Shown one piece after another: positions 35,596-59,229 of a stretch of 64,000 nt of DNA. Origin of the DNA: Lytechinus pictus (Eukaryota). The notes under the pieces were generated by a model. It was not told where the DNA came from. It did no database searches and saw only the letters and a list, made by a program, of their open reading frames with translations. How positions within the stretch are numbered: position 1 is the first letter of the stretch; each line of letters begins with the position of its first letter. The position numbers were made by a program, and so were the translations under genes. The stretch covers positions 24,120,001 to 24,184,000 of the forward strand of contig NC_087250.1 of NCBI RefSeq assembly GCF_037042905.1, written 5' to 3'.

Positions 35596-36270
35596 TATGG
35601 GGCGCCAAGTGTCCGCCAGTGAATTAGGTCCAAATCACGGCATTCCGTACACAAAATGTGTTTTTATTCAGACGAAAATCATTTCGTCATGACGCTTTTT
35701 TATTTCGTACACAAAATTTATTTTTTGTCACACAAAATCAATTTCGTCTCGAAATGCACGAAATCAATTTCGTCTAGACGAAATGTAATTGCGTCCACAA
35801 AGTTTATTTGGCGTGCCATACGAAATGAATTTTTTTCAAACGAAATGGCGCACCAAATGTCCGATGGTAAATTCCGTCCAATTCACGCCATTCCGTACAC
35901 AAAATGTGTTTTTGTTCATATGAAAATCATTTCGTCATGACGCAGTTTTATTTCGTATACGAAATTATTTTTTGTCACACAAAATCAATTTTCGTCGAGA
36001 CTAAATGTAATTGCGTCCACAAAATTTATTTCGTTGCGATGCGAAAATCTATTCCGTCGACGAAATCATTTTGTGTCAAAACCACAAAAAAATTTCGTTG
36101 ACGAAATGATTTTGTGTCAAAACACAAAAAAATTTCGTCGACGAAATGATTTTGTGTCAAAACACAAAAAAATTTCGTCGACGAAATGATTTTGTGTCAA
36201 AAGACAAAAAAATTTCGTCGACGAAATGATTTTGTGTTTTGAGTCTTTTTGACATAAAATCATTTCGTCT
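35596..36270 (+). repeat. Subterminal repeat block: about 248-bp direct duplication of the terminus plus 40-bp tandem repeats; mirror at about 58525-59160
   Basis: cattccgtacacaaaatgtg at 35641 and 35889; acgaaatgat at 36101, 36141, 36181 and 36221; palindromic core TTTCGTCGACGAAA. Confidence 0.9.
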
Positions 36271-37388
36271 CCTCTGTCTCGAAGGGGACATAAGAAGGTC
36301 GCTGATTGGCTGCACCTTGCTCAAGCTGTTTTCGCTCCGGGACGATCACACTTTTTCACAGCTCAGATTGGCATGTTGGTGAACTTATTAGCTTAGATTT
36401 CACGTTATTCATGCCTACATGAGCTGCATACAACTGCTCTAATCGGTAGGATGTGGACGGACATTGCATTCGTAAGTTCAGCTATGTTTTCGACTTCAAA
36501 ATTACGTTGAAAAAAAAATGGGAATTCGTTAGTCGTTACCAAACTTGCATTTGCAAAAAGCTGTGTAACAATACTAGTCCCGTGTATTTAAGTTTATGTA
36601 CTGTAGTCAGCAGACCATTGGGGGGGGGGGGGTTTGTCTTTTCTGCACACCTAAAAAGTAAAATGGTTATGAATTATACAGGTTGAAGATATTTAGGCCT
36701 TGATCTTAATAAATAATGTAAAATTCATTCCGAGCAAAATGCTGAAAATTTCATTGAAATTGGATGACAACAAAAGTTATTGATGCCTGGCCGTACATGC
36801 CGTATGAAACTCTAACGTTAGGCTACTCCACTCAGTGACTCACGCGTATTGCGAGGTTAGTATTAGTATACTAACCTCGCACCATTAACCACGTTTGGCA
36901 ATGGATTTCTAACTAGTGGGTCACGCGTGCTGTGATCCCACTTCTGGTGTCCACAACACACAACCATCGCCTGCTGTACTAGTATAGTTGTGGTAGCCCT
37001 GGCCCCACTCATTACTAGTTCGAGGTTAGTGGCTACATATAGTTGCTACAGTACATGTATAGATCTATAGTACTAACCTCGTACACCGAACTGCATTTGG
37101 CCCTGGATTTCTGTGAAGTTGGCAAACATCGCTTCATTACAATACAGAATTAATATTTGCCGAAACTCCTCGCTACTCACCGGGGCGCTTTGCGGTGAGT
37201 AGCCATAATACAAAAAGTCAATAGTATATTTTTAATTAAATCAAAATCATATTTAAAAAAAAAGCAAATTTGATTACTTTGGAGTTTGGACTAGAAAGTG
37301 ACTTCGCGTGTCTCTTCTTTTTACGCAAATAAAAGGAAGCCAGATGGTGGCGCTAATAAATTTCACAGCCTTGATTCAGGCTCGCTTC

Positions 37389-39649
37389 AAATGCAGCTCC
37401 TCGGTAATTATGCCCCCGCAGACAAAGTCCGGAGGGGGCATTAAGCGTTGCCCCTGTCCGTTGATTCGCCCGCCCCCCCCACTTGGTTTCCGCGCAATAA
37501 ATCGAAATATATTTCGATTTATATATATTGATTAAAAAAATTTTGGTGTGTAGGTATGTGACACCATAGTACAGGCTAACTTTGAATTCGGAGTCTGCAG
37601 GTCCAAGGTCACAGCTCATGAAATATCCGAGTTGGTTTCCACATGATGACTTATGAAATATTCTACATATTTAAACGAATTTGAGTGTGTAGGTAGATGA
37701 CACCAAAATACAGGTTAAGTTCGAATTCGTAGTCGGCAGGTCAAAGGTCACGGCTCATTAAATATGCAATTTAGTTTCCACATGATTACTTTAAAAATAT
37801 TCTACATATTTAAACAAATTTGAGTGTGTAGGTAGATGATACCAATACAGGCTAAGTTCGAATTCGGAGTATGCAGGTCAAAGATCACAGCTCCTTAAAG
37901 ATATCTTATGAAATATGCAACAGATTTTTAAAAAATTTGGGTGTGTAGGTAGATGATGATGATGATGCACAGCATTTTTACAGCGGCGTAACAGGGTTCG
38001 GTGGCCAGGGGGGGGGGGGGGGCAAGAGCCAAAAATTTCCCGGTCATATCATGGTATGAAGAGGCGTAATGGTGTAATAAGGCGACTATTTTGAGAAATG
38101 CAGCTCCTTGGTAATTATGCCCCCGCAGACAAAGCCTGGAGGGGGCATTAAGCGTTGCCCCTGTCCGTTGATTCGCCCGCCCCCCCCACTTGGTTTCCGT
38201 GCAATAAATCGAAATATATTTTGATTTATATATATTGATTAAAAAAAATTTTGGTGTGTAGGTATGTGACACCATAGTACAGGCTAACTTTGAATTCGGA
38301 GTCTGCAGGTCCAAGGTCACAGCTCATGAAATATCCGACTTGGTTTCCACATGATGACTTATGAAATATTCTACATATTTAAACGAATTTGAGTGTGTAG
38401 GTAGATGACACCAAAATACAGGTTAAGTTCGAATTCGTAGTCGGCAGGTCAAAGGTCACGGCTCATTAAATATGCAATTTAGTTTCCACATGATTACTTT
38501 AAAAATATTCTACATATTTAAACAAATTTGAGTGTGTAGGTAGATGATACCAATACAGGCTAAGTTCGAATTCGGAGTATGCAGGTCAAAGATCACAGCT
38601 CCTTAAAGATATCTTATGAAATATGCAACAGATTTTAAAAAAATGTGGGTGTGTAGGTAGATGATGATGATGATGCACTGCATTTTTACAGCGGCGTAAC
38701 AGGGTTCGGTGGCCAGGGGGGGGGGGGGGGGGCAAGAGCCTAAAATTTCCCGGTCATATCATGGTATGAATAGGCGTAATGGTGTAATAAGGCGACTATT
38801 TTGAGAAATGCAGCTCCTTGGTAATTATGCCCCCGCAGACAAAGTCCGGAGGGGGCATTAAGCGTTGCCCCTGTCCGTTGATTCGCCCGCCCCCCCACTT
38901 GGTTTTCGCGCAATAAATCGAAATATATTTCGATTTATATATATTGATTAAAAAAAAAATTGGTGTGTAGGTACATGACACCATAGTACAGGCTAACTTT
39001 GAATTTGGAGTCTGCAGGTCCAAGGTCACAGCTCATGAAATATCCGAGTTGGTTTTCGCATGATGACTTATGAAATATTCAACAGATTTATAAAAATTAT
39101 GGTGTGTAGGTAGATGACACCAAATACAGGCTAAGTTCGGAGTCGGCAGGTCAAAGGTCACGGCTCATTAAATATGCAATTTAGTTTCCGCATGATTACT
39201 TATGAAATATTCTAAATATTTAAACGAATTTGAGTGTGTAGGTAGATGACACCAAAATACAGGTTAAGTTCGAATTCGTAGTCGGTAGGTCAAAGGTCAC
39301 GGCTCATTAAATATGCGATTTAGTTTCCGCATGATTACTTTAAAAATATTCTACATATCTAAACAAATTTGAGTGTGTAGGTAGATGATACCAATACAGG
39401 CTAAGTTCGAATTCGGAGTATGCAGGTCAAAGATCACAGCTCCTTAAAGATATCTTATGAAATATTCAACAGATTTTTAAAAAATTTGGGTGTGTAGGTA
39501 GATGATGATGTTGATGATGCACAGCATTTTTACAGCGGCGTAACAGGGTTCGGTGGCCAGGGGGGGGGGGAGGGCAAGAGCCAAAAATTTCCCGGTCATA
39601 TCATGGTATGAATAGGCGTAATGGTGTAGTAAGGCGACTATTTTGAGAA
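37389..39649 (+). repeat. Three tandem copies of a 707-844-bp unit with about 120-bp subrepeats; single copy in the right arm at about 56402-57244
   Basis: Unit start aaatgcagctcc at 37389, 38096 and 38806. Confidence 0.9.
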
Positions 39650-42599
39650 GGCCAGAACTTATCTTTAAAAAAAGTTGCGAGCGAGCGAAGCGAGCGAGCA
39701 ATTTTTTTTACCTTTTTAATACAAAAATCCAATTTTGTGATAGATTTTGACATGATATCCAGATAATAAATTTATTTAATTCTTCTCTCTTTAGATTCCT
39801 TTTTTGTCACGGTGGTCTGTACGCGCCACTGTGAAGAGGATTATTTGCGGCAGTAGCGTGAAGAGTAAAAAACAAAACAAAAAAACAACGAGGGGCGCAG
39901 TATAGAACATGTGCCAAAAGGCTGCTTTATATATATATATATATATATATAAGTCCTGAGCGAGCGAAGCGAGCGAGAAAAAAAATCAACTTTTCATGAG
40001 AATATAACTTTGAGCTATTTTTTAACATATTCAGTAATTAAAATCATATCCTACAATACTTTTCCAACAAAAAAGGAGGTAATTCCTCCTTTTTTTTTAA
40101 ATATTCCATTTTCAGTATCCAAATAGAGATGAAAATTATCCTATTTGGGAGGGTAACCATGGACCTGGGCCTTTACTGTGTATTTACAGTAAACTCTTAC
40201 TAAATGAACAAATATATAAAAAATTTGGTTTACCCTACATAATAATCCTGGGCTACTTTTAGATTGCATAGCCCGGGGGGGGGGGGAGGCTTTTTGGTCC
40301 CCCTCTTCAGATCTCCGTCGATCGCAACGAAAACCAATACACACGTCACCATCAATGTAATCTGCAAGCATGGAGCTAAGGGTGTATCGCTGATTTTACA
40401 GAATTTAAATTTATTTTTAATAAATTAATAATGCTAATTTATGCCTAAATATAGAATTCTCTGCTTTAAAGGTAAATCTCTAAATAATTCCCCAAATTCT
40501 ATGATTTCTAAACAAATGTGCTCCTGAAAAAAATGGTAAATCAAATTTCTAATCTTATGTATTTTATTGGTTTTATAATTCCATACGTATTTCTTAGTTT
40601 TGGGGCCTTATGTATTTTATTGGTTTTTTTCAATGGGATCACTTCGTGGTACTATTCCAATTATAAAAAGCAAAGATTTGATTATTTTCAACCAATCAGT
40701 GCAAGAATAATGATGCATTTGTCAATTATGACTGAAAACAGAATTTCCATTGGATTAAATATGTATACAAAATAAAATTTTTAGCAATTTTTGGTCCAAC
40801 ATAAGCTCATAAAATGTTGGGTAACTGCGTATCCGGGCGTCTCGAATTTGGTCTCAAAAGCTCTGCGAGAATTGAACGGGAAAAAAAATTGTGGTACCTC
40901 GTTTCTCATTGTGGACTTATCGTGAAAAATGTGGATAGGGGGGCTTATTAAGCCCCCCCCCCAGGGGCTAGATAGGGTTAATATATCATCATGAATATAC
41001 AAAAAAAATACATTTATTTTGTTGCAAGTCACTGGAAAAGGTTTGATTCCTAAATAAATATTATTCTTCATGTATTATCAAATATTTAATTGAAAAATTT
41101 TAAGCTATCTTTTCATTCGATGTATTAAGCGCTATATAAAAGCGGATTATTATTATTATTATTAGGTTTTATCATAATTTTACTTTTTGAAAATTATGCT
41201 ATTTTGTGACTAAGGCTACGTTTCATGTACTTTCCACCAATAGTATACGATATCAATGGATTCTAGTTAATCCTTTTGGGTAAGATTGGAACTAACTCTG
41301 TGTTTGGTAGATAAAGTTATATGACTAACTTGTCCAAGTGTTGAGAAACGGGCCCCTGCTGAGTACATGTAGGCCTAGAGTTTTTATGCCCCCACAGACG
41401 AAGCCCAGAGGGGGCATTAAGCATTGCCCCTGTCCGTCCCCCCCCCCCCACTTGGGTTTCCGCGCAATAACTCGAAAAATATTTAATGGATTTAAAAAAA
41501 ATTTTGGTGTGTAGGTAGATGACCACAAAATACAGGCTAAGTTCGAATTCGGAGTCCGCAGGTCAAAGGTCACATCTCATTATATATGCAAGTCGGTTCA
41601 AAGGTCTGAATTTGTTAATTATATATATATGCATATTGGTTTCTGTATGATATTAAGTTCAATCATATTGAATGGATTTCTGATCGCGTTAAGCAGGGGC
41701 ATCTGTGTCCTTTGGACACGTCAAATTTTCTTAATTATGTGTAATTGATTTTATGACATGTGTTTACATTTGCTGCAGATTCCCATTCAGCCGTTGGACT
41801 GAACCGGTACTGTAACACAGTATGGATGGTCAATATGAAGCGAGCTTCATTGAATTCTTCCAAGAGCTTTGTACTCCGTTTTGCTCATTTTGAAGATGGT
41901 AGCTTTGACAGGACTGGGCAAGTGACACGTCTTAGACAGGATGCTGTCCCAACCATATTTGATTTCCTGCCTCGTCTTCAGAAGGTAGAGTAGATCTATA
42001 TCATACATGTGTTCTAAAGAAATATTTTCTCTGTATTATCTACCTTTGGTTTGATAGAACATTGCTTTAAATATTCCATTTTCAGTAGCCAAATAGAGAT
42101 GAAAATTATCCTATTTGGGAGGCTAACCATGGACCTGGGCCTTTACTGTGTATTTACAGTAAACTCTTACTAAATGAACAAATATATTAAAAATTTGGTT
42201 TACCCTACATAATAATCCTGGGCTACTTTTAGATTGCATAGCCCGGGGGGGGGGGGGGGGGGGAGGCTTTTTGGTCCCCCTCTTCAGATCTCCGTCGATC
42301 GCAACGAAAACCAATACACACGTCACCATCAATGTAATCTGCAAGCATGGAGCTAAGGGTGTATCGCTGATTTTACAGAATTTAAATTTATTTTTAATAA
42401 ATTAATAATGCTAATTTATGCCTAAATATAGAATTCTCTGCTTTAAAGGTAAATCTCTAAATAATTCCCCAAATTCTATGATTTCTAAACAAATGTGCTC
42501 CTGAAAAAAATGGTAAATCAAATTTCTAATCTTATGTATTGGTTCTATAATTCCATACGTATTTCTTAGTTTTGGGGCCTTATGTATTTTATTGGTTTT

Positions 42600-43582
42600 T
42601 GTCTCGCCTGCATAGCAGAGCGAGACTATAGGCGCCGCTTTTCCGACGGCGGCGGCGGCGTCAACATCAAATCTTAACCTAAGGTTAAGTTTTTGAAATG
42701 ACATCATAACTTAGAAAGTGTATGGATCTAGTCCATGAAACTTGGACATAAGGTTAATCAAGTATTAGTGAACATCCTGCCTGAGTTTCAGGTCACATGA
42801 CCAAGGTCAAAGGTCATTTAGGGTCAATGAACTTTTGCCAAGTTGGGGGTATTTGTTGAATTACCATCATAACTTTGAAAATTTATGGATTTAGTTCATG
42901 AAACTTGGACATTAGGTTAATCAAGTACCACTGAATATCCTGTGCGAGTTTCAGGTCACATGACCATGGTGAATGGTCATTTAAGGTCAATGAACTTTGG
43001 CCGTGTTGGGGGTATATGTTAAATTACCATCCTAGCTCTGAAAGTTTATGGATCTAGTTCATAAAACTTGGACATAAGAGTAATCAAGTATCACTGAACA
43101 TCCTGTACGAGTTTCAGGTCACATGACCATGGTCAAAGGTCATTAAAGGTCAATGAACTTTGGCCGTGTTGGGGGTATTTGTTGAATTACCATCCTAACT
43201 ATGAAAGTTTATGGATCTAGTTCATAACACTTGGGATATAAGAGTAATCAAGCATCACTGAACATCCCCTGTGAGTTTCAGGTCACAAAACCAAGTCAAA
43301 GGTCAGTTAAGGTCAATAAACTTAGGCCATGTTGGGGTAATTGTTGAAGTGCCATCATAACTTTGAAAGTTTATGGATAGAGTGAATGAAATGTGGACAT
43401 GGGTGTAGTTGACAGTCTTAAGTCTCCGTTCAAATGTCATTTATGGTCAATGAACGTGGTATTATGTCATTATATGAATGATGTTTTTGTGAATGATTAT
43501 TTTATAGTAGTTTTCAAAGTTAGCACTGCTGCTATATTAAATTGCGTAATGCAGGCGAGACTGCCAGAGGCGTTCCACTTGT
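42600..43582 (+). mobile_element. Helentron/Helitron2-like element, same family as 5535-6171, left arm only
   Basis: TGTCTCGCCTGC...GCAGGCGAGAC...CACTTGT inserted in a T-run with no TSD; empty site tggtttttttcaatg at 40621; about 5 internal 128-bp repeats. Confidence 0.75.
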
Positions 43583-46500
43583 TTTTCAATGAGATCACTT
43601 CGTGGTACTATTCCAATTATAAAAAGCAAAGATTTTATTATTTTCAACCAATCAGTGCAAGAATAATGATGCCTCTGTCAATTATGACTGAAAATAGAAT
43701 TTCCATTGGATTAAATATGTATACAAAATAATATTTTTGAGCAGATATTATGGTATTGTAGATAATGCCATGGGTAACGCGCGTGCCAATTTTCGTCGCG
43801 ATTGCGAGATCAACGGCCGAGATCATAAGGGGGGCTGAATCAGCCCCCCCCCCCGTCTTCTTAGGCGTCGAAATAGCCCAGTCTATTTAGGGTTAAAGAT
43901 AAATCCCTAAATAATTCCCCAAATTCTATGATTTCTAAACAAATGTGCTCCTGAAGAAATGGTAAATCAAATTTCTACTTTTATGTATTTTATTGGTTCT
44001 ATAATTCCATACGTATTTCTTTGTTTTGGGGCCTTATGTATTTTATAGTTTTTTTTCAATGGGATCACTTCGTGGCACTATTCCAATTACAAAAAGCAAG
44101 ATTTGATTATTTCCAACCAATTAGTGCAAGAATAATGATGCATTTGTCAATTATGACTGAAAATAGAATTTCCATTGGATTAAATATGTATACAAAATAA
44201 TATTTTTGAGCAATTTTCGGTCCAACATGAACTCATAAAATGTTGCGTAACTGCGTATCTGGGCGTCTCGAATTTTGTCTAAAAGCTCTGCGAGAATTGA
44301 ACGAAAAAAAAAATTGTGGTACCTCGTTTCTCATTGTGGACTTATCGTGAAAAATGTGGATGGGGGGGGGGGGGGCTTATTAAGCTTATTAAGCCCCCCC
44401 CCCCGGGGCTAGATAGGGTTAATATATCATCATGAATATTAAAAAAAAAACATTTATTTTGTTGCAAGTCAATGGAAAAGGTTTGATTCCTAAATAAATA
44501 TTATTCTTCATGTATTATCGAATATTTAATTGAAAAATTTAAAGCTATCTTTTCATTCTTCTATCTGTTTTTGTTCAATATTTCTTATATGTTTCTTTTT
44601 TTTAATTCATTCATCTCGTACAGAGTTCATCCAAGCCAAGGAATTCCCCGAAAGAAAGACGTTTTGATTCAGCAAACAACCTCCCAGATACTGCAAAGTC
44701 TTCAGCACCTTCATTTCTCGAGGACCACTCCTACTCAATATCAGAAAGTCCAAGAGGGGTAAAGTGGAAGATAACAGCAATAATGGACTATTAAAAACTT
44801 GGAGAAGAGGCTGAAACCACACAGCAGAAGTCCCGCCGTGTACATTACTTGCTCTTAAGTTTGGACAAACATGACTCGCAAAACTTTACAACAAATAATT
44901 TACGCTATGTGCATTCTGATTATTTAAAATAGCTCAATGAAAAAGTTTACCACTGGGCATGTAACAAAAGTGCATTCATTAAATTTGAACGTGTTGCAAA
45001 AATGATGTCTTACAGTATATTCATTCTGACTTAGAATGTCAGAAGAGAAAAAAGTTTGTGAAAAGTAGGAATGACAGCAAGCTGACAGAAGAATAGAACA
45101 GGATAGAACAAGGCGATAGTTATGAATGAGCTGTTGGATAGAGACAAAAAGATGAATTAAGAATGGGGGTGATAGAGAAAGAGAGACGGGTGTTGGGGGA
45201 GCCTGTGATCAATGCCTGAGAAAGCGAAGATTACCATAATTTTTTTAAGGATTTGAACAGTCAGGAAAAATCTGGGTTTTTTTTTCTGTTGGTATTTCTC
45301 AAAATACTTGTATGTTTTATGTAACGAAACGGGTATAATCCTTCGGAAGTTTCACTCACACAGAAAATATTAACTAAACAAAAGAAAAAAAGCCAAATAA
45401 TTCACTGATTTTCAATTGTTCAGTAACTCTCATATCCAAAGTGCCCCCCCCATCATTTCAATGTATTGGAGAGAGAGTATGAACGGGACATGGCTGTCTG
45501 CAGAAAAAAAAAATACGGGGGGGGGGCAAAAATTTTTGGGGATATGTGCAAGGGAGCGAAGCGACAGCAGAAAATTATTTTGCAATATATGCGAGAGAGC
45601 GAAATGACAGAGAAGAAAAATGCAAGAGACAAGAGATTTGGGGAATATGTGAGAGGGAGCGAAGTGACCAAGCAGAAGAAATGTAGAGGACATAAAATTG
45701 TTGGGGTATGTGAGGGAGCAAAGCAACCGATAAAAAAAGCAGGTCAAAATATTTTTTGTGAATGATTATTTTATAGTAGTTTTCAAAGTTAGCACTGCTG
45801 CTATATTAAATTGCGTAATGCAGGCGAGACTGCCAGAGGCGTTCCACTTGTTTTTCAATGAGATCACTTCGTGGTACTATTCCAATTATAAAAAGCAAAG
45901 ATTTGATTATTTTCAACCAATCAGTGCAAGAATAATGATGCCTCTGTCAATTATGACTGAAAATAGAATTTCCATTGGATTAAATATGTATACAAAATAA
46001 TATTTTGGAGCAGATTTTGATATTATGGTATTGTAGATAATGCCATGGGTAACGCGCGTGCCAATTTTCGTCTCGATTGCGAGATCAACGGCCGAGATCA
46101 TAAGGGGGGCTGAATCAGCCCCCCCCCCCCCGAAATGAGCGAAATGACAGAGAAGAAAAATGCAAGGGACAAGAGATTTGGGGAATATGTGAAAGGGAGC
46201 GAAGTGACCAAGCAGAAGAAATGTAGAGGACATAAAATTGTTGGGGTATGTGAGGGAGCAAAGCAACCGATAAAAAAAGCAGGTCAAAATATTTTCGAAT
46301 ATGTGTGAGGAAGCGACTCGTTCACTCTTGAGCAGTAGGGACTTGTTTAAAAATAGCTTAAGAAATATGCGTTTTCTAAGCATGGTAAACACATATTGTA
46401 GGCCTACGGTAGAATTTAGGTGCTCTAAGAGTTAGATTCTGAATGAGCTGCATTTGCTGGTAAGACATGCGCAGAGGATCTTTGTCTTTCATCCATTTTC

Positions 46501-47080
46501 CACACTTTTCTTTTGATTTCAGTTTCCAGGCAGAAAGGCCCACCCTCCTGTGGAAGCCAATGGGGCAGGGGATTATATGCTTAAAATGCCAATTTTTCTG
46601 GTTGGAATATCAAACATTATCCTGAGCTTCGCGCTCATTTTAAAAATTATGTATAAACTATTAATGCTGATAAATACATTTAGATGTGCAGTGCTCTCTT
46701 GTAAAGCAGTTTTGTACTGAAGAGGCTACCCTGGGTAAATAAAACAGAATAAATGAATAAAGAAATAAATAAAAATGATGTTTCTAATCTCAGACTTTCT
46801 TATGCCCCTCGAAAGCTCACCCCTTCTTTGTTTCTCTTTTGATATCTAAAGTTCCGGTTTTTCCCTTTCTATCGTGCACTATTCTAAGCCCCAGCCCCAC
46901 TGGCTTCCACAGGAAGGGGGGGGGGGGGGGCTTCCCCTGAAAACTGAAATCCAACAAAAGAAATTTGAAAAATAAAAATGGATAAGAGACACAGATCCTT
47001 GCCGCATGTCTTACCAGCCAATACAGTTCATTCAGAATTTGACTCGTAAAACACCTAAATTCTACCGTAGGCCTATAATA

Positions 47081-48491
47081 GGTTTATTGCCATTTCGTCT
47101 ACTGCCATTTTGTCCACTCACCAAATGGTATGTCATTTCATCTACCATCAGTTGTTCCTTTTCCACATCTTCCAATTACCATTTTGTCCAATAGCTAGTT
47201 CGTCTAATAACCAATTTGTCTACTTTCATTTGGTCTAATTGTATTTTTGGCCAATTTGTCCAATAGCCACTTTGTCCATTTTCATTATGTCTATTACCAT
47301 TTAGTCCAATAGCCAATTGGTCTAAGGGCAAATGGCCACTGACCACTTAGTCTACTTACATTTTGTCTATGTTCCATTTTGTCCAACTGCAGTTGATCCA
47401 CTGTCACTTAGTCTAAACCCATTTCATCTAACAATCATTTGGTCTAATCATCAATGGGTCCAATTGCCATCCCGGTCAATATTCGTTTCGTCTACAATCA
47501 AATAGGAATAGTCTCCTACTAGCAGTCCTTCTAGTTTGGTGCCTGTGTATTGCTACCTCGACTCCTGTTGCTCTTGTGATTTGTTATTAATTTACACCTG
47601 TCGTTTGATTAATCTTTTATTAGTGTTTTTTTAAGCTCCATTGTAATACATTTTATGTTTTTATGTAATGTTCTCCCCATCCTTTCCCACTTTTCTCTCT
47701 TTTTAATTTTTTTTGTACCGTCCAAGGCTGTTATCGTTATTATTATAGTACATTTCTTGTTTATTAGTACTATCATTAATTACTATTATTACAATTATTA
47801 TCATTGTTATATGATGAGTGATGATTATCATTTTTAGGTGTGCATTTGTAAAAAAAAAGAAATGAGGGTAAATTCCAAATCAAAGGACCCTATTTCAATT
47901 TTATCAATTTTAACCACTCCAATTCCCCCTTTTGTGTGCGTGATGTGGTAGAGAGAGCGGGGGGGGGGGGGGGGGGGGTAGGAGGCTGCATGCTGTACCG
48001 CATCATTCCATTCCTGATAGCAGGCCTAGTTATATATTTTTTTATCTTCATGAATTTCAAGGTATATTTAAGAAGTCATTTCGTCCCCCCCCGGATGATG
48101 CATTATATTTGTATTAGACAACATGGCTATTGGACCAATTGGCTATTAGACTAAATGACTATTGGACGATTTGAGAATTGGACGAACTGGGCGATTTGGT
48201 TGTTAGACAAACTGATTATTGGACCTAATGGGTGGTGGACGAAATGATAGACGAAATGACAATTATCCGGTAGATAATTTGGATATTGGACCAACTGATA
48301 TTAGCCAACATGGCTTGGACTAAATGAACATTGGACGAACTGATTAATGGAGATGGCATTAGCCTTAATAGAATTAGACTAAATGGGTGGTAAACGAAAT
48401 TGCTATTGGACGAAATGGCATTTATAGACAAAATGAAGGTAGACCATGTGGTGAGTGGACTGTATGGCAGTAGACGAATTGGCAATTTACC
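47081..48491. mobile_element. About 1.4-kb long-TIR element (MULE/foldback-like) near the palindrome centre; terminus fragment also at about 22585-22617
   Basis: GGTTTATTGCCATTTCGTCTACTGCCAT / ATGGCAGTAGACGAATTGGCAATTTACC; arrays of short ttggtctaat-like repeats in mirror orientation; degenerate flanks ctataata/ttaaaata. Confidence 0.7.
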
Positions 48492-49758
48492 TTAAAATAT
48501 GGGTTTACCATTCTTAGAAAACGCATGTTTCCTAAAACAAGTCCCTACCGCTCGGGAGTGAATGTGTCGCTCCCTCGCACATATTCCAAAATATTTTGAC
48601 TGACCCTGGGTAAATAAAATAAACAATTACAAAAACGAAAATGTTGTTTTTAATCTGAGACTTTTTAATGCCCCTCGAAAGTTCACCTGCTTTCTCACTC
48701 TCCCCCTCTCTATCTTTGTTTTTATTCATTTTCATTTTACAATTCTTTCTTTCTCTTTTGATATCTATAAAGTTCAGATTCACCCTCTCTAACTTGCACT
48801 ATTCCAAGCCCCCGCCCCATTGGTATCCACAGGAATGGGGGGAGGAGGGGCTTACCCCCTGGAAAATAAATTCAAACAAAAGAAAAATGTGAAAATAAAA
48901 ATGGATAAAGACAAATAATCCTCTGCGCATGTCTAACCAGCCAATACAGTTCATTCAGAATTTAACTCTTACAACACCTAAATTCTACCATATTATCAGT
49001 TTACCATGATTATAGAAAACGCATATTTCCTATGCCATTTTTAAACAAGTCCCTATCGCTCGGGAGTGAACGTGTCGCGCACCAGCACAAATTCGAAAAA
49101 TATTTTGATTGACCTGCTTTCTGGTTTTTTTTATCGGATGCTTTGCTCCCTCACACATACCACAATTTTTGTCCCTCTTTCCTTTTACTTCTGCTTGGTC
49201 ACTTTGCTCCCTCTCACATATTCTCGAAATATTTTGGCCCCTGCATTTGTTCTTCTCGTCACTTTGCTCTCTCACATATATCCCCAGAATAATTTTTCTG
49301 CTCGGTCGCTTCGCTCCCTTGAACATATCCTAAAAATGTTTTGCTCCCCCTGCATTTTTTTCTGCAGACAGCCAATCCATTTCTCATCCAACCTCTCTCT
49401 CTCTCCAATACCTTGAAATGAGGGGGGGGGGGGGTACTTTTGATATGAGAGTGTCTGAACAGTTGAAAATAAGTAAAATATAATTTGGCTTTTTTGTTTG
49501 TTTAGTTAATATTTTCTGAATGAGTGTATCTTACAAAAGAATTATACCCATTTCATTACATACAACATACACATATTTTGAGAAATACCAACAGAAAAAA
49601 CATGTACTATTCATTACTGTCCAAATCCTCAAAAAAAAATTATGGTAATGTTCGCTTTCTCAGGCATTCATCAAAGGCTCCCCCACACCTGTCTCTCTTT
49701 CTCTATCACCCTCAATCTCAATTCATCTTTTTGTCTCTATCCAACAGCTCATTAGTAA

Positions 49759-50358
49759 AGGTCAAGTTTACCCAAGAAAATTGTTGGTTCAGTTAAATTG
49801 AGAAAAATCAAACTAGCATAACGCTGAAAATTTCATCAAAATGGGATGTAAACTAAGAAAGTTATGGCATTTTAAATTTTCACTTATTTTTCACAAAACA
49901 AAAATATTTACAACTCAGTGACATGCAAATGAGACAGTCGATAATGTCCCTCACTCACTGTTTATTTTGTTTTTTATTGTTTGAATTATACAATATTTCA
50001 TTTTTTACAGATTTTACCATAAGGACAAACTTTACTGAACCAAAAAAGTATTGAATAATGCTAATTCCACATGATCAGGGAGGAATAAAATTTTGTTTAA
50101 CATGACAAGGAGAAAATTAGAATATACCTTATTCTATATATCAAATGAAATAGTGAGTGGATGACGTCATCAGTCTCCTCATTTGCATACTGACTGTGTA
50201 CAGAATGTGCATATAACTCTTTTGTAAAATTTAGCAAAATTTTTAAATGTCATAACTTTCTTATTTTACATCCGATTTTTTATCAAATTTTCAGTGTTAT
50301 GCTTGTTGGATTTTTCTCTTTTTATTCATATCAACAATTTTTGGGGTGGACTTGTCCT
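49759..50358. mobile_element. Kolobok-like MITE, same family as 10247-10852, right arm only
   Basis: AGGTCAAGTTTACCC...GGGGTGGACTTGTCCT termini; absent at the mirror site near 45120. Confidence 0.7.
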
Positions 50359-51069
50359 TTATCTGTCCCCCTTGCTCTATCCTGTTCTATTCTTCTGTCA
50401 TCTTGCCGTCATTCCTACTTTTCACAAACTTTTTTCTCTTCTGACATTCTAAGTCAGAATGAATATACTGTAAGACATCATTTTTGCAACACGTTCAAAT
50501 TTAATGAATTCACTTTTGTTACATGCCCACTGATAAACTATTTCATTGAGCTATTTTAAATAATCAGAATGCACATTGGGGTAATTATTTGTTGTAAAGT
50601 TTTGCAAGTTATGTTTGTCCAAACTTAAGAGCAAGTAATGTACACGGCGGGACTTCTCGTGTGTGGTTTTCAGCCTCTTCTCCAAGTTCTTAATACAGTC
50701 CATTATTGCTGTTATCTTCCACTTTACCTCTCTTGGACTTTGTGATATTGAGTAGGAGTGGTCCTCGAGAAATGAAGGTGCTGAAGACTTTGCAGTATCT
50801 GGGAGGTTGTTTGCTGAATCAAAACGTCTTTCTTTCGGGGAATTCCTTGGCTTGGGTGAATTCTGTACGAGATGAATGAATTAAAAAAAAGAAACATATA
50901 AGAAATATTGAACAAAAACAGATAGAAGAATGAAAAGATAGCTTTAAATTTTTCAATTAAATATTTGATAATACATGAAGAATAATATTTATTTAGGAAT
51001 CAAAACCTTTTCCAGTGACTTGCAACAAAATAAATGTTTTTTTTTTTAATATTCATGATGATATATTAA

Positions 51070-52425
51070 CCCTATCTAGCCCCGGGGGGGGGGGGCTTAA
51101 TAAGCCCCCCCCCCATCCACATTTTTCACGATAAGTCCACAATGAGAAACGAGGTACCACAATTTTCTTTTTCGTTCAATTCTCGCAGAGCTTTTAGACA
51201 AAATTCGAGACGCCCAGATACGCAGTTACGCAACATTTTATGAGTTCATGTTGGACCGAAAATTGCTCAAAAATATTATTTTGTATACATATTTAATCCA
51301 ATGGAAATTCTATTTTCAGTCATAATTGACAAATGCATCATTATTCTTGCACTAATTGGTTGGAAATAATCAAATCTTGCTTTTTATAATTGGAATAGTG
51401 CCACGAAGTGATCCCATTAAAAAAAAACTATAAAATACATAAGGCCCCAAAACAAAGAAATACGTATGGAATTATAGAACCAATAAAATACATAAAAGTA
51501 GCAATTTGATTTACCATTTCTTCAGGAGCACATTTGTTTAGAAATCATAGAATTTGGGGAATTATTAAGGGATTTATCTTTAACCCTAAATAGACTGGGC
51601 TATTTCGACGCCTAAGAAGACGGGGGGGGGGGGGGGGGCTGATTCAGCCCCCCTTATGATCTTGGCCGTTGATCTCGCAATCGCGACGAAAATTGGCACG
51701 CGCGTTACCCATGGCATTATCTACAATACCATAATATCAAAATCTGCGAAAAATCTCATTGCTCATTATGTTAATTAATGCGTAAAATCATAAGTTTGCT
51801 CTAATTAACAAAATAATGCCCCTAAAATGCTCATTTTTGTTTCACTTACTCTTTATAGGCATCTGATTAAATTAATTTTTAAAAAAGTTGTCAACATCAC
51901 ATTCATTTTTTATGTATTTTATTGTTTTCTAAATTTCTTATGTATTTCCGTGTTTTTCGACTTTTTGTTTTTTATTGTTTTTTCAATGGAAATTGTCGGA
52001 GACGTTTTTTTTTACCATAAACAAGATAAAATTAATTGATTTTGAGCAGTAAAAGGAAAAATATGATACATTTTATAAATTTTGGCTAAAAACACTACTT
52101 GCATTGGATTTGTACACAAATACACGTTTTTGAGCAATTTTGGTTCTGCATGCAGTTACGAAATGTTGCGTAATTTCGGAACCCTGTACCTGGGGGTCAC
52201 AATTTTGGTCTCAAAAGTTGCGCAAGACTTGAAAGTAAAAAGTCAACGAGTGACGCGGTCAAAAAAATGTCGAGCTCCATGCTTGCAGATTACATTGATG
52301 GTGACGTGTGCATCGGTTTTCGTTGCGATCGACAGTGCATGGAGATCTGAAGAGGGGGACCAAAAAGGCCCCCCCCCCCGGGCTATGCAATCTCAAAGTA
52401 GCCCAGGATTATTATGTAGGGTAAA
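51070..52425. mobile_element. Two nested/fused piggyBac-like MITEs (A from 51070, B from 51584); rearranged mirror pieces in the left arm at 40230-40977 and 42200-44418
   Basis: TTAA|CCCTATCTAGCCC at 51066 and TTAA|CCCTAAATAGACTGGGC at 51580; similar to 12147-12921. Confidence 0.65.
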
Positions 52426-52939
52426 CCAAATTTTTAATATATTTGTTTATTTAGTAAGAGTTTACTGTAAATACACAGTATAGGCCCAGGTCCATGGTTA
52501 CCCTCCCAAATAGGATAATTTTAATCTCTATTTGGCTACTGAAAATGGAATATTTAAAGCAATGTTCTATCAAACCAAAGGTAGATAATACAGAGAAAAT
52601 ATTTCTTTAGAACACATGTATGATATAGATCTACTGTACCTTCTGAAGACGAGGCAGGAAATCAAACATGGTTGGGACAGCATCCTGTCTAAGACGAGTC
52701 ACTTGCCCAGTCCTGTCAAAGCAACCATCTTCAAAATGGTCAGAACGGAGTACAGAGCTCTTGGAGGAATTCAATGAAGCTCGCTTCATATTGACCATCC
52801 ATACTGTGTTACAGACAGTACAGGTTCAGTCCAACGGCTGAATGGGAATCTGCAGCAAATGTAAACACATGTCATAAAATCAATTACACATAATTAAGAA
52901 AATTTGACTTGTCCAAAGGACACAGATGCCCCCGCTTAA

Positions 52940-53536
52940 AGGGGAATCCAACCCAAATAAAAAATTGTTTTTATAAGGAAAAGAAAAATCAGACAAGTTG
53001 ATAGGTGAAAGTTTGAACAATATTGGACAAACAACAAGAAAGTTATGAATTTTTAAAAGTTGTAAATATTGGTAATCACTGTACCCATGGAGACCTCAAA
53101 TTGGCTGCATATGGGATGTCATAGTGATGTAAGGCAAGGACTACTCTTCCATGTACTCCAATTCATATTATGGCGAAAATGTGATTTTTTCCCAAAAGTT
53201 TTATTTCAAATTAATATTTTTCTTTCATGAGGACATAAAACAATATACTACCTGGGTTATATTTAGATTACTGCCCCAGGGGAATGGGTACTTAGGAGAA
53301 AACCACTAATCCCTGATAATAAAGTACATGGCCTATGGGAAAGTTGTCCTTGCCCCTTGTCATAATTTACTTATCCAGTTGCCAATTTGAAATCTACATA
53401 GTATTAGTGATCTCAATTTTAAAGCAGCTATAACTTTCTTATTGCTTGTCTGATTTCTTTCAAACTTTCACCATTCTGTTTAATTTATTTTTCTCCTTCC
53501 CAACACAGCATTTAATGGCCAAGGCTGGATTCCCCT
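52940..53536. mobile_element. Kolobok-like MITE, 597 bp, right arm only
   Basis: TTAA|AGGGGAATCCA...TGGATTCCCCT|TTAA; empty site cgcgTTAAgcag at about 41689 in the left arm. Confidence 0.85.
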
Positions 53537-54889
53537 TTAACGCGATCAGAAATCCATTCAATATGATTGAACTTAATATCATGCAGAAACCAATATGCAT
53601 ATATATAATTAATTAACAAATTTAGACCTTTGAACCGACTTGCATATATAATGAGATGTGACCTTTGACCTGCGTACACCGAATTCGAACTTAGCCTGTA
53701 TTTTGTGGTCATCTACCTACACACCAAAATTTTTTAAAATCCATTAAATATTTTTCGAGTTATTGCGCAGAAACCAAGTGGGGGGACGGACAGGGGCAAC
53801 GCTTACTGCCCCTTCCGGGCTTCGTCTGCTGGGGCATAAAAACTCTAGGCCTACTCAGCAGGGGCCCATTTCTCATTACCTGGACAAGTTAGTCATATAT
53901 CTTTATCTATTAAACACAGAGTTAGTTCCAATCTTACCCAAAAGGATTAACTAGAATCCATTGATATCGTCATATTGATACTATTGGTGGAACAAAAATA
54001 GCATAATTTTCAAAAAGTAAAATTATGATAAAACTTACAATTATTGTGATGAATTTGGAAATACATACTATCAAAATAATAGCAGAGGCGAAATATGCAT
54101 AAAACATACTCAAACATGCAGACATGGGCATTAAATTGCTGATAAAATGAAATTATCAGTAATTCATTTCATGACAAAAAAAAATCACATGTATGTGGAC
54201 ATTGAGATGGGTATCCCCAGATATAAAATTTGAATAGTTTAAGTAAACCATACAGGCTTTCTTCCTAAAATGATGATAATTATACAGGTTTTTAGGATTC
54301 CAAACACCATCAAAATATTATCATCATGAATAAACTCTTTAGATACCGAAACACACGATTTTATAAATTCTATGCGTATATTAGAGAGAGAAGGGTCTGA
54401 AAGCGACGAGTACGAGTCCAATTATGGATGGCCTGAAGTGGTAGAATCTTTGTCAATTCAATTATTTTACTACTTTAAAATGAATGGTTTTGTGATGTTT
54501 TACCAACACTTGTTATAATTCTGTGCATTACAATTACTATTGAATGATTTATCCCACTTGTGTACAATATAATTCATTTTCTATGAATTATTATGTAATA
54601 TTATAATTTTCGAATTTCGAGGCTCATTTGCATGTATTATGGTGTCATCTATCTAAACACCCAATTTTTAAAAAATCTGTTGAAATTTTATAAGTTATTA
54701 TGAGGATACCAACTCGCATATTTAATGACCCTGTGTAGTGGTCCACCTGCATTCCCCCAACCAGTTATCGGGAGGAGAGACCTGCGGGTCACAGTTCTGT
54801 GTGCGCGCCCTTGTAGGCGACCCAGATTGGCTGGCTCCTCCAATATGCCTTTGAATGTCTTTGACAGATATATGGTGCTATAAAAATGC

Positions 54890-55780
54890 AGTGGCGTAAC
54901 AGGCGGGGGGCAGGGGGGGGGGGGCAAGTTACCCCCCCTGGCGGATTTCACCGGGAAAATTAAAAAACAACGGGAAAAAGAAAAAAAGGAGGGAGAAAGA
55001 AAGGGAAAGGGGAAGGAAAGGGGAAAGAAAAGGAGGAAAGGGAAATGGAAAGAGAAAAGGAAAAAGACAACGAAGAAAAAACTGTTTTTAGTAAAAAAGG
55101 GAGGAAAGCGGGAAAATGTACGATAGAATTAACATTTGAAAAAGAACAAATCATTGAGAAAAGGGCCTATGTAATGCAATAGCACGGTGGGAAATAAATT
55201 AAAAGATGACAAAATGGCAAACAATAGCGGGAAACGAAGGTAGAATGTAATTAGTCAAGAGCTAAATTAGAAAACAAAGAAAAGGAACAAGAAAAAAAAT
55301 AACACGACCGGGCTGCTGATGATTGAAATTAAAGAGCGGGAAGAAAGATGGACTGCATACAACATTGTGCTATAAGTTTTCTAAATTTTATGCAAATAAG
55401 CTACCGGGGCTTTGCCCCAGACCCCACAAAGTAGGGGCTCTTCATTTATAATCTTCAAATGGCTCTATAACGCCCCCGTTCAATCACGTTCAATCACTGC
55501 CATACAGGCGGGGGGGGGGGGGGGGGGGGTCGTGGTTCCACACCCAAGAGGATATAAAAGAAATTTTATAGGAGACAACGTACATGACGTATAATGAAAT
55601 GAATAAAAACAAGGAAATGTGTTATTTGCTGATAATAATGGAAAAATCTATCACATAATTAGATTTTAATTTCAATAGGCAATTTTTTCCAGCTCGCTTT
55701 GCACACTGGCGACTTTTTACAAATTTTTCCCACATTTCTATGTTTTGCCCCCTCAAAATATTTGGTTCATTACGCAACTG
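54890..55780. mobile_element. hAT-like MITE remnant(s) with a purine-rich tract
   Basis: CAGTGGCGTAA...TTACGCAACTG termini; no matching TSD seen. Confidence 0.4.
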
Positions 55781-58700
55781 GGTTGAATAAATGTGTTGTG
55801 TAAAAGCTATATTATGCCCGCGATTTGATTAAAATTGGGGAAATCTGCAAGGTTTAAATGGCTTTGATATCAAGAAGTTCCTGGGGCTCTGCCCTGGACC
55901 CCAAACACACAGCACTGCGTATGGAAGGGTTGGGCCATGGCCCCAAAAAGTTCTACAGCCAAGAACAAAAAAAAAGGAGGAATTACCTCCTTTTTTGTTG
56001 GAAAAGTATTGTAGGATATGATTTTAATTACTGAATATGTTAAAAAATAGCTCAAAGTTAGATTCTCATGACAAGTTGATTTTTTTTCTCGCTTGCTTCG
56101 CTCGCTCAGGACTTATATATATAAAGCAGCCTTTTGGCACATGTTCTATACTGCGCTCCTCGTTGTTTTTTTGTTTTGTTTTTTACTCTTCACGCTACTG
56201 CCGCAAAGAATCCTCTTCACAGTGGCGTACAGACCACCGTGACAAAAAAGGAATCTAAAGAGAGAAGAATTAAATAAATTTATTATCTGGATATCATGTC
56301 AAAATCTATCACAAAATTGGATTTTTGTATTAAAAAGGTATTAAAAAAATTGCTCGCTCGCTTCGCTCGCTCGCAACTTTTTTTAAAGGTAAGTTCTGGC
56401 CTTCTCAAAATAGTCGCCTTACTACACCATTACGCCTATATTCATACCATGATATGACCGGGAAATTTTTGGCTCTTGCCCCCCCCCCCCTGGCCACCGA
56501 ACCCTGTTACGCCGCTGTAAAAATGCTGTGCATCATCATCATCTACCTACACACCCAAATTTTTTAAAAATCTGTTGAATATTTCATAAGATATCTTTAA
56601 GGAGCTGTGATCTTTGACCTGCATACTCCGAATTCGAACTTAGCCTGTATTGGTATCATCTACCTACACACTCAAATTTGTTTAAATATGTAGAATATTT
56701 TATAAGTAATCATGCGGAAACTAAATTGCATATTTAATGAGCCGTGAACTTTGACCTGCCGACTACGAATTCGAACTTGACCTGTATTTTGGTGTCGTCT
56801 ACCTACACACTCAAATTCGTTTAAATATGTAGAATATTTCATAAGTAATCATGCGGAAACTAAATTGCATATTTAATGAGCCGTGACCTTTGACCTGCCG
56901 ACTCCGAACTTAGCCTGTATATGGTGTCATCTACCTACACACCCTAATTTTTATAAATCTGTTGAATATTTCATAAGTCATCATGCGGAAACCAACTCGG
57001 ATATTTCATGAGCTGTGACCTTGGACCTGCAGACTCCGAATTCAAAGTTAGCCTGTACTATGGTGTCATGTACCTACACACCAATTTTTTTTAAAATCAA
57101 TATATATAAATCGAAATATATTTCGATTTATTGCGCGGAAACCAATTGGGGGGGGGGGGGCGGGCGAATCAACGGACAGGGGCAACGCTTAATGCCCCCT
57201 CCGGACTTTGTCTGCGGGGGCATAATTACCGAGGAGCTGCATTTGAAGCGAGCCTGAATCAAGGCTGTGAAATTTATTAGCGCCACCATCAGGCTTCCTT
57301 TTATTTGCGTAAAAAGAAGAGACACGCAAAGTCACTTTCTAGTCCAAACTCCAAAGTAATCAAATTTGCTTTTTTTTAAATATGATTTTGATTTAGGCCT
57401 AATTAAAAATATACTATTGACTTTTTGTATTATGGCTACTCACCGCAAAGCGCCCCGGTGAGTAGCGAGGAGTTTCGGCAAATATTAATTCTGTATTGTA
57501 ATGAAGCGATGTTTGCCAACTTCACAGAAATCCAGGGCCAAATGCAGTTCGGTGTACGAGGTTAGTACTATAGATCCATACATGTACTGTAGCAACTATA
57601 TGTAGCCACTAACCTCGAACTAGTAATGAGTGGGGCCAGGGCTACGACAACTATACTAGTACAGCAGGCGATGGTTCGTGTAAGCTCCACTACACTTCAC
57701 TACTGCTAACCTCTGCTTCACCTATACTGATTAATGGCTGGCTATACGAACCATTGCCTGAGTTTTTTAGGCCTAGTCACTCAAGGGTTCATTACATGCC
57801 GCCGCGCACAGAAAAATCAAGCAATAGAAGTTGTGTGTTGTGGACACCAGAAGTGGGATCACAGCACGCGTGACCCACTAGTTAGAAATCCATTGCCAAA
57901 CGTGGTTAATGGTGCGAGGTTATTATACTAATACTAACCTCGCAATACGCGTGAGTCACTGAGTGGAGTAGCCTAACGTTAGAGTTTCATACGGCATGTA
58001 CGGCCAGGCATCAATAACTTTTGTTGTCATCCAATTTCAATGAAATTTTCAGCATTTTGCTCGGAATGAATTTTACATTATTTATTAAGATCAAGGCCTA
58101 AATATCTTCAACCTGTATAATTCATAACCATTTTACTTTTTAGGTGTGCAGAAAAGACAAACCCCCCCCCCCCAATGGTCTGCTGACTACAGTACATAAA
58201 CTTAAATACACGGGACTAGTATTGTTACACAGCTTTTTGCAAATGCAAGTTTGGTAACGACTAACGAATTCCCATTTTTTTTTCAACGTAATTTTGAAGT
58301 CGAAAACATAGCTGAACTTACGAATGCAATGTCCGTCCACATCCTACCGATTAGAGCAGTTGTATGCAGCTCATGTAGGCATGAATAACGTGAAATCTAA
58401 GCTAATAAGTTCACCAACATGCCAATCTGAGCTGTGAAAAAGTGTGATCGTCCCGGAGCGAAAACAGCTTGAGCAAGGTGCAGCCAATCAGCGACCTTCT
58501 TATGTCCCCTTCGAGACAGAGGAGACGAAATGATTTTATGTCAAAAAGACTCAAAACACAAAATCATTTCGTCGACGAAATTTTTTTGTCTTTTGACACA
58601 AAATCATTTCGTCGACGAAATTTTTTTGTGTTTTGACACAAAATCATTTCGTCAACGAAATTTTTTTGTGGTTTTGACACAAAATGATTTCGTCGACGGA

Positions 58701-59166
58701 ATAGATTTTCGCATCGCAACGAAATAAATTTTGTGGACGCAATTACATTTAGTCTCGACGAAAATTGATTTTGTGTGACAAAAAATAATTTCGTATACGA
58801 AATAAAACTGCGTCATGACGAAATGATTTTCATATGAACAAAAACACATTTTGTGTACGGAATGGCGTGAATTGGACGGAATTTACCATCGGACATTTGG
58901 TGTGCCATTTCGTTTGATAACAATTCATTTCGTATGGCACGCCAAATAAACTTTGTGGACGCAATTACATTTCGTATAGACGAAATTGATTTCGTGCATT
59001 TCGTCGAGACGAAATTGATTTTGTGAGACAAAAAATAAATTTTGTGTACGAAATAAAAAAGCGTCATGACGAAATGATTTTCGTCTGAATAAAAACACAT
59101 TTTGTGTACGGAATGCCGTGATTTGGACGGAATTCACTGGCGGACACTTGGCGCCCCATACTTTAC

Positions 59167-59229
59167 GGTGACTACGCCAACAGTGTCAATGCCCAGGAGA
59201 TCTTCCCTGCCAAGCAAACTGAAGTCTAA
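59167..59229 (+). pseudogene. CNGK: Displaced remainder of the duplicate terminal exon (GDYANSVNAQEIFPAKQTEV*)
   Basis: Identical to 13589-13651; resumes immediately after the right TSD. Confidence 0.92.

Follow-up and report, generated by a model that had tools for sequence, protein, structure and literature searches.

The window analysed here is a 64,000-nucleotide stretch of the genome of the sea urchin Lytechinus pictus (contig NC_087250.1, positions 24,120,001 to 24,184,000), and it contains a palindrome whose two arms each carry the remains of a THAP-family gene. This palindrome, at window positions 35596–59160, is one discrete, multi-copy mobile element. We consider it probable that the 23,565-bp element is a full copy of a non-autonomous foldback DNA transposon of the cut-and-paste type, of the IS3EU/GingerRoot kind, and that the THAP gene is its decayed passenger. 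A sequence-only reading of the same DNA had described the gene and missed the mobile element; six copies share the same ends and lie between different flanks.

Ends, copies and internal structure of the element

Five further genomic loci align with the window element, and in all five the alignment starts at 35596 and ends at 59160. Each of the six copies begins with the same terminal 22 nucleotides, TATGGGGCGCCAAGTGTCCGCC (35596–35617 in the window, plus strand), and ends with their reverse complement (59139–59160), whereas the flanks differ between copies. The window copy lies between two CTTTAC hexamers, at 35590–35595 and 59161–59166, which form a 6-bp target-site duplication. Further foldback copies are bounded by GGGGGC, AACGTG, CTGGGA and GATCTT, and the sixth, on C2, sits in a poly-G run in which the duplication is unreadable. 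Nine elements were checked in this way, namely the six aligned copies, a 5.2-kb relative (L041, duplication GATTAC) and two elements on C15 that are described below; the 6-bp duplication is unambiguous in eight of them, the ninth being the copy in the G run. The ends are of the TA..TA type in all nine, with TATG(G/A)GGCGCC at the start and the reverse complement ...GGCGCC(C/T)CATA at the end, the window element itself starting TATGGGGCGCC....

The family is large. At up to three mismatches the 22-nt terminus has 116 matches in the genome (65 forward, 51 reverse), compared with none for a reversed control pattern, and pairing adjacent forward and reverse matches by eye gives ∼30 elements of 22–49 kb, whose combined length would be roughly 0.8 Mb. 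When the 812-Mb assembly is searched with the THAP profile, it returns about two dozen matches that score the same as exon 2 in the window, and 311 bases around exon 2, intron flanks included, give 40 scored matches of 96–100% identity from 86 candidates; only the best candidates were scored in these searches, so that the numbers of genome copies are minima. The same terminus, or one that differs at two positions, also bounds short derivatives, with lengths of 164 bp, 758 bp, 1.2 kb and 5.2 kb (C3:35918275-35919032, C3:75227283-75228456, C7:35015847-35016010, C15:6878179-6883425, which is L041, and C6:20209686-20214955). L041 has no long open reading frame (ORF) and was rejected as an autonomous copy; it is non-autonomous.

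The inverted arms, 35596–45113 and 50370–59160, are ∼9.5 kb long and 94–99% identical. Each begins with a subterminal repeat module (35596–36250, mirrored at ∼58500–59160) that comprises a ∼250-bp direct repeat (35596–35750 against 35845–35996, 87% identity) and a 40-bp tandem array (36051–36237); the same module is found in the 5.2-kb L041 and in a 16.65-kb sibling element at 74–90% identity. Just inside it on the plus strand is the heptamer gattggc, an inverted CCAAT box and putative promoter element, which can be read at 36304–36310 and again at 36366–36372, and the region around the first copy (36290–36326) is conserved at 89% in L041. Tandem-repeat analysis places 139-bp arrays within ∼0.7-kb higher-order repeats in intron 1 of the left THAP gene (37532–39448), where the right arm has a single 139-bp array (56596–57095), and a 163-bp array in intron 2 (42702–43400); the sibling also has the latter, at a similar distance from its terminus.

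The centre between the arms (45114–50369) has no recognisable coding domain and holds other dispersed repeats, for example at 49756–50361. This last is a copy of a ∼600-bp repeat that is also present outside the element, at window positions 10244–10855 and 31041–31649, and in L041 (L041:1373-1913), with 78–84% identity between copies.

A Pfam scan covered 125 of the 176 ORFs of at least 50 residues in the element. Among these no transposase domain was found, including any P-element or RNase-H-like domain; the two THAP ORFs are the only credible matches, and three others, to cNMP_binding (a host exon), DruA and DUF2659, are below threshold and at chance level. The window element is non-autonomous, and its structure is that of a foldback element: arms that make up most of its length, internal tandem repeats and no transposase domain. 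Polinton/Maverick elements, for which 6-bp duplications are also characteristic, were considered and ruled out: the window element has TA..TA termini and lacks a long ORF, and no protein-primed polymerase or capsid domain occurs among the scanned ORFs. The GingerRoot study describes the termini of Polintons as AG..TC and those of Ginger elements as TG..CA (PMC6839031).

A sibling element that carries a transposase gene

A genome search with the Pfam family rva_4 (PF24764, "Integrase core domain") returned 89 matches, one of which, C15:3405591-3406134, falls between two matches to the terminus. These delimit a complete sibling element of 16,651 bp (C15:3400071-3416721; L043, L044, L047) with ATCTAA on both sides, nested in a 49-kb foldback copy that is itself flanked by GTTACC. 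The terminal 150 bp of the sibling are 90.5% identical to the window terminus and the ∼1.2 kb of subterminal repeats 74–85% identical. Its coding region comprises two abutting ORFs of 141 and 228 residues, which score 59.9 and 151.4 bits with rva_4 and contain the motifs WHLDG, TDHGGEN and NERIERLW. All 23 database relatives (400–606 residues), from corals including Acropora, a nemertean, a fungus and S. purpuratus, match rva_4; most also match rve, and seven have a helix-turn-helix (HTH) domain. Matches to the bacterial transposase models IS481 (E 3.5e-8 to 2.4e-20) and IS3 (E 1.8e-5 to 5.4e-12) were obtained with the N-terminal ORF of the sibling and with two intact relatives, at scores below the curated cut-offs of those models; the C-terminal ORF of the sibling matches neither.

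Kojima (2023, PMC10045372) reports TA..TA termini for every complete IS3EU family, with duplications that are usually of 6 bp. For GingerRoot, Cerbin et al. (2019, PMC6839031) list a 6-bp duplication, mostly TA..TA termini, inverted repeats of 100–150 bp and acquired gene fragments. Both the duplication length and the termini are found in the window element, and the third hallmark, an integrase-, IS3- or IS481-like enzyme of the Asp-Asp-Glu (DDE) type with HTH in the autonomous form and no HHCC finger, is found not in the window element but in the sibling that has the same termini. Taken together, the termini, the duplication length and the enzyme type fit IS3EU/GingerRoot and not P/THAP9. The sibling is a candidate transposase source for the foldback family.

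The next best matches to this gene are degenerate. A tandem array of ∼35 kb at C4:22364448-22399466 holds dozens of transposase fragments, 63–77% identical to the C15 gene and with many TAG and TGA stops, and looks like a satellite built from a transposase gene; a further fragment lies on C11.

The THAP gene in the arms

Each arm holds three consecutive, inward-pointing exons of one THAP-family gene, as the comparisons below support. Exon 1 is found at 36411–36472 (plus strand) and, as an identical copy, at 58321–58382 (minus strand), with gtaagt as its donor. The reading M P T TGA A A Y N C S N R TAG... gives way to TLH in a different frame, and the lesions are the TGA at codon 4, the TAG at codon 13 and a frameshift before TLH. 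In exon 2 (41779–41984, plus; 52640–52849, minus) a ctgcag acceptor stands directly before (A)TTCCCA, which encodes FP; the sequence continues FPFSRW and then, after a frame shift, ...VLR(F/S)(A/D)HFEDG(S/C)FDRTGQVTRLRQDAVPT(I/M)FDF, and ends ...DAVPT(I/M)FDFLPRLQK, with AVPTIF in the left arm and AVPTMF in the right. The Pfam THAP profile (PF05485) scores 26.2 bits on the left copy (E 1.4e-5) and 31.8 bits on the right (E 2.5e-7) against a cut-off of 23.9, with matches that span only profile positions 32–87, the second half of the domain. Exon 3 (44624–44932, plus; 50551–50862, minus) has the motif EDHSY in both arms. On the left its frame is broken by an internal TAA after ...IMDY, whereas the right-arm frame stays open for 103 codons and includes both DHSY and CIKNLEKRLKTTHEKSRR; an RNA joint sets the 5′ boundary of this exon copy at 50862. 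No Pfam family was found in the exon 3 ORFs. DHSY fits the pattern [DE]HxY of HCF-1-binding motifs and is a putative motif of this kind.

Comparison with an intact, spliced paralog (L042) identifies the first exon. Its exon 1, MPSCAAINCTNRLVKGSGKTFHK, has the donor at the same position, and a 2.5-kb intron separates it from an exon 2 that begins at FP, the same layout as in the arms. Since exon 1 of the arms aligns with this exon and its donor lies in the same place, we conclude that it is the relic of a true THAP exon 1. L042 shows no DNA similarity to the element and was ruled out as its direct parent. The sequence-only reading had placed exon-like segments in both arms, with gattggc upstream and gtaagt as donor, and had pointed to the AVPTIF-type end, the intron before FP and a profile search as the check for THAP; all of these are borne out, the search giving scores above the gathering threshold in both arms.

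Three loci, C12:260486, C14:23383315 and C16:26545598 (L042), give identically scoring matches to an intact spliced THAP exon 2, FRFPKAGSAHLKEW...LCSDHF...AIPTIFNF, and at L042 the intact exon 1 lies 2.5 kb upstream. These may represent another repeated THAP-bearing unit.

The C2CH zinc ligands are broken. The first Cys is TGA and the third is CGT (Cys to Arg), while the second Cys and the His are kept. The loss of two zinc-ligand Cys codons, also reported by the sequence-only reading, is seen in all 12 arms of the six copies, as are the TGA and TAG of exon 1 and the frameshifts, and these identical lesions uphold one of its two suggestions, namely that decay preceded arm duplication. Across the six copies, left arms are 99.7–100% identical to each other and right arms 99.5–99.9%, whereas left and right arms are 95.8–96.4% identical; the difference between the two sides is ∼4% around exons 2 and 3 and 0.2% around exon 1. 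The shared lesions and these identities give an order of events in which decay was followed by arm duplication, then by ∼4% divergence, and then by a very recent burst. Further signs of such a burst are that one copy lies in a coding exon and that one sibling is nested inside a foldback copy; the family burst is very recent, and the element seems to have moved recently. Gene models of L. variegatus have the same frameshifted exon 2 reading, with the third Cys kept, and the shared frameshift implies that the family and part of the decay are older than the split of the two species.

Older, diverged copies of the same THAP exons are present at C30:387464-412696, C4:25185396-25220588, C8:27757537-27771156 and C5:56920717-56922060. 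They are 64–96% identical to the NCBI model P0001, some score slightly better than the window copy (39.8 bits at C8:27771022), and they could serve to date the decay. A 335-residue frame beside the diverged exon 3 on C30 (L045) was considered as a transposase and ruled out, being a translated tandem repeat.

The gene is not hidden, as it had been described, in that NCBI already annotates P0001 as "THAP domain-containing protein 2-like" of Lytechinus pictus. This 156-residue model is 100% identical to the right-arm exon 2 frame and joins ...LPRLQK to NSPKPRNSPKERR...DHSY...LEKRLKTTHEKSRR...HSDYLK, which are exons 2 and 3. In the right arm of the window element this frame of 156 codons begins at an internal Met and continues uninterrupted through the splice into exon 3, whereas the left-arm exon 3 frame is broken. 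The same splice is seen in RNA, where a joint 50862→52640 that skips 1,777 bases, with CT..AC ends corresponding to GT..AG on the minus strand, occurs in two contigs of the oligo-dT RNA run X5 and in one contig of run X1; X1 is only presumed to be RNA, with depth of 237–245 on exon bins and 0–20 on several intron bins. One X5 contig stops matching exactly at the exon 2 acceptor, 52849, and its 26 further letters lie elsewhere; the sole X5 depth near exon 1 is 26 letters at the depth of that same contig. Of the proposal that the three segments are consecutive exons, therefore, the splicing of exons 2 and 3 is supported by the RNA contigs and the NCBI model, while the joining of exons 1 and 2 is inferred from this one 109-nt contig. 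We conclude that low-level transcription and splicing of the THAP gene persist.

Thousands of poly-G-tailed RNA reads pile up at two short G-rich sites, window positions 51622–51639 and 55507–55530, and the many "joints" that runs X12 and X13 show there were rejected as poly-G read artefacts.

The encoded protein resembles small proteins of the THAP1/THAP2 type, for which atlas look-alikes that score 0.93 are a lead only. The likeness extends to the intron before FP, AVPT(I/M)F, DHSY followed by a putative helical tail, and a length of ∼200 residues; a single-sequence AlphaFold model of P0001 predicts helices at residues 96–146 with a predicted local distance difference test (pLDDT) of ∼50, against a mean of 41.7 for the model, a level at which the coiled coil named by the sequence-only reading is no more than a candidate. 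The element-borne gene differs from THAP1 and THAP2 in that its first and third zinc ligands are lost, its exon 1 has stops, and it is found only inside transposon copies.

Origin of the THAP gene and relation to known systems

The THAP gene is most likely a decayed passenger, because its lesions are shared by all 12 arms and because THAP is absent from all 23 relatives of the transposase. No THAP exon was found by tblastn between the terminus and the DDE ORF of the sibling, of which all but the left 3.4 kb was covered, and genome-wide searches with the THAP profile, with exon 2 DNA and for a parent gene gave no match in the sibling; nor does THAP occur in any of 30 atlas clusters of the DDE protein. 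Several observations weigh against the passenger reading or against the assignment to IS3EU/GingerRoot. With no transposase in the window element, the superfamily rests on the termini, the duplication length and one sibling, with which, in a sensitive blastn comparison against the left arm, the foldback shares only the ∼1.2-kb termini and the block with the 163-bp tandem array, and no THAP exon. A single frameshift in a T run interrupts the sibling gene, which has no other close copy in the assembly; the best of the remaining matches are fragments of 63–77% identity with stops, and no demonstrably intact enzyme was found. A parent THAP gene with more than 70% identity was not found in the assembly outside the family, so that capture remains inferred. 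Exon 1 stands directly behind the conserved terminal module, as it would in an element's own gene. Lastly, the raw RNA runs X12 and X13, depleted of ribosomal RNA and sampled at ∼6% each, have essentially zero depth on exons 2 and 3.

Some of these points recur in the proposal, which we think unlikely, that the THAP gene is a relic of the family's own second gene or of the N-terminal DNA-binding module of its transposase. An accessory THAP protein would then once have bound the subterminal repeats, and the foldback would have come about when an autonomous element had its 5′ half duplicated in inverted orientation. The lack of a parent and the position of exon 1, ∼815 bp from each terminus and directly after the subterminal repeats and the CCAAT stretch conserved in the 5.2-kb relative, would be expected on this proposal, as would the inward direction of the gene, like that of transposase genes, and the presence of the same gene with the same frameshifted exon 2 in L. 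variegatus family members. The sibling has no such exon between its terminus and its DDE ORF, however, and none of its relatives or atlas clusters has THAP, the N-terminal domain listed for 7 of the 23 relatives being HTH. Neighbouring ORFs with the two domains are seen on C8, where an intronless THAP ORF (C8:3404278-3404556, in a frame of 179 residues) lies 5.2 kb upstream of an rva_4 ORF on the same strand (C8:3409794-3410327, in a 438-residue frame of a different subfamily), but the two other copies of this rva_4 ORF have no THAP neighbour among the matches listed; the C8 pair could be chance or a THAP and integrase-type element. In its widest form, which we hold to be quite unlikely, the proposal makes the echinoid IS3EU/GingerRoot lineage a two-gene system, in which an integrase-type DDE enzyme is joined by a small protein with THAP and the HCF motif, its gene lying immediately within the end of the element, much as Harbinger elements have a Myb-like partner protein; the foldback family would be a runaway derivative that kept this accessory gene and its promoter in duplicate. 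Were this so, some animal THAP1/2-like genes could descend from accessory genes and not from P elements.

Two further readings fare worse. The 156-codon right-arm frame, with its partial THAP domain, DHSY and helical tail, might encode a functional product, such as a regulator that binds HCF or dimerises and is made from many copies. It is open across the splice, modelled by NCBI and present in oligo-dT RNA contigs, and right-arm versions are better preserved than left-arm ones; yet the frame lacks exon 1, the first half of the THAP fold and two of the four zinc ligands, its left-arm counterpart is broken, depth in the two deep RNA runs is near zero, and the copies are so young (at least 99.5% identical) that open frames are uninformative about selection. 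We regard a functional product as improbable. The sequence-only reading instead saw in the arms the remains of a P-element/THAP9-like transposon, in which THAP, the HCF-binding motif and a coiled coil would be the N-terminus of the transposase; such an element would be a Galileo-like foldback. Galileo is a foldback-like element of the P superfamily whose THAP domain binds its long inverted repeats (work cited in PMC4079207). In P/THAP9 transposases generally, the N-terminus consists of THAP followed by a helical region. No P-element or RNase-H-like domain was found among the scanned ORFs, the gene stops in exon 3 to give a small THAP1/2-like protein, and the enzyme of the sibling, whose termini are the same, is an rve-type DDE protein without THAP. 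The duplications are of 6 bp in eight of nine elements, whereas P elements make duplications of 7–8 bp. The search for intact parents that the sequence-only reading had suggested led to none above 70% identity outside the family, and the termini that flank the family members are IS3EU/GingerRoot-like. A P-type origin is thus scarcely credible.

On the passenger reading, the THAP gene, which was disabled before arm duplication and before amplification of the family, would have been acquired by, or resident in, an ancestral element without being part of the transposase. Inverted duplication of one end-proximal half may then have produced the foldback, leaving two perfect ends and two dead THAP copies with a promoter and splice sites that are still active. 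A transposase supplied in trans would presumably bind at the subterminal repeat modules, ∼0.7–1.2 kb; either the sibling's enzyme or an intact copy that was lost or is unassembled would bind the shared terminal module at both identical ends. DDE-catalysed cut and paste with 6-bp staggered target cuts would then generate the 6-bp duplication.

Like IS3EU and GingerRoot, a Repbase superfamily, the family has non-autonomous copies with gene fragments, and size limits of up to 30 kb were applied to GingerRoot (PMC6839031). The inverted repeats reported for GingerRoot are 100–150 bp, whereas the foldback shape here gives arms of ∼9.5 kb, and a complete THAP gene of three exons is carried as cargo, twice and in inverted orientation. 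Acropora, in which relatives of the C15 protein occur, is a genus for which GingerRoot homologues have been named. Very long inverted arms, internal tandem repeats and the lack of a transposase are shared with the foldback elements FB of Drosophila, Tetris and TU of sea urchins, which are mobilised in trans and have only terminal sequences in common with a coding relative (PMC4079207). Foldback is a shape, however, and not a lineage, and instead of simple arrays the arms here consist largely of unique sequence that includes a gene. The likeness to TU elements, reportedly described by Liebermann in 1983, is one of structure. Among the papers searched, none on sea urchin foldback elements describes this family, and none links IS3EU and THAP. 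Galileo of Drosophila is alike as a foldback-like transposon of the P superfamily with a THAP association, but its THAP domain is the N-terminus of a P-type transposase and its duplication is 7 bp, whereas the present family has a 6-bp duplication, an enzyme of the rve type, and a THAP gene that is separate, small and broken. Pack-MULEs and other gene-carrying DNA transposons offer a parallel for the cargo, as non-autonomous elements that multiply and express a host-like gene with introns; no parental gene was identified here, in contrast, and the cargo is duplicated in inverted orientation.

What appeared to be a gene in a palindrome is thus a defined and very young transposon family, which extends the little-studied IS3EU/GingerRoot group, if correctly placed there, to foldback forms with ∼9.5-kb arms. 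The sibling offers a candidate transposase source for a seemingly recently moved endogenous DNA transposon in a laboratory-model sea urchin, a matter of relevance to the stability of lines and perhaps to the building of tools.

The window copy also interrupts a host gene. Its insertion site is in the last coding exon of a cyclic-nucleotide-gated (CNG) cation-channel-like gene, 20 codons before the stop; the exon, which encodes the cyclic-nucleotide-binding domain, runs from 35371 to 35595 on the plus strand and its frame resumes at 59161–59229. The NCBI protein P0029 ends ...IGKELY-YGAPSVRQ, its last eight residues being read from the transposon terminus, whereas a continuation of ∼20 further residues, ...LYGDYA...TEV/TVV, up to a stop is found both in P0028, a relative, and in the window sequence past the element. 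The C-terminus of the CNG-channel model and the "THAP domain-containing protein 2-like" model are both transposon products, and both annotations need correction.

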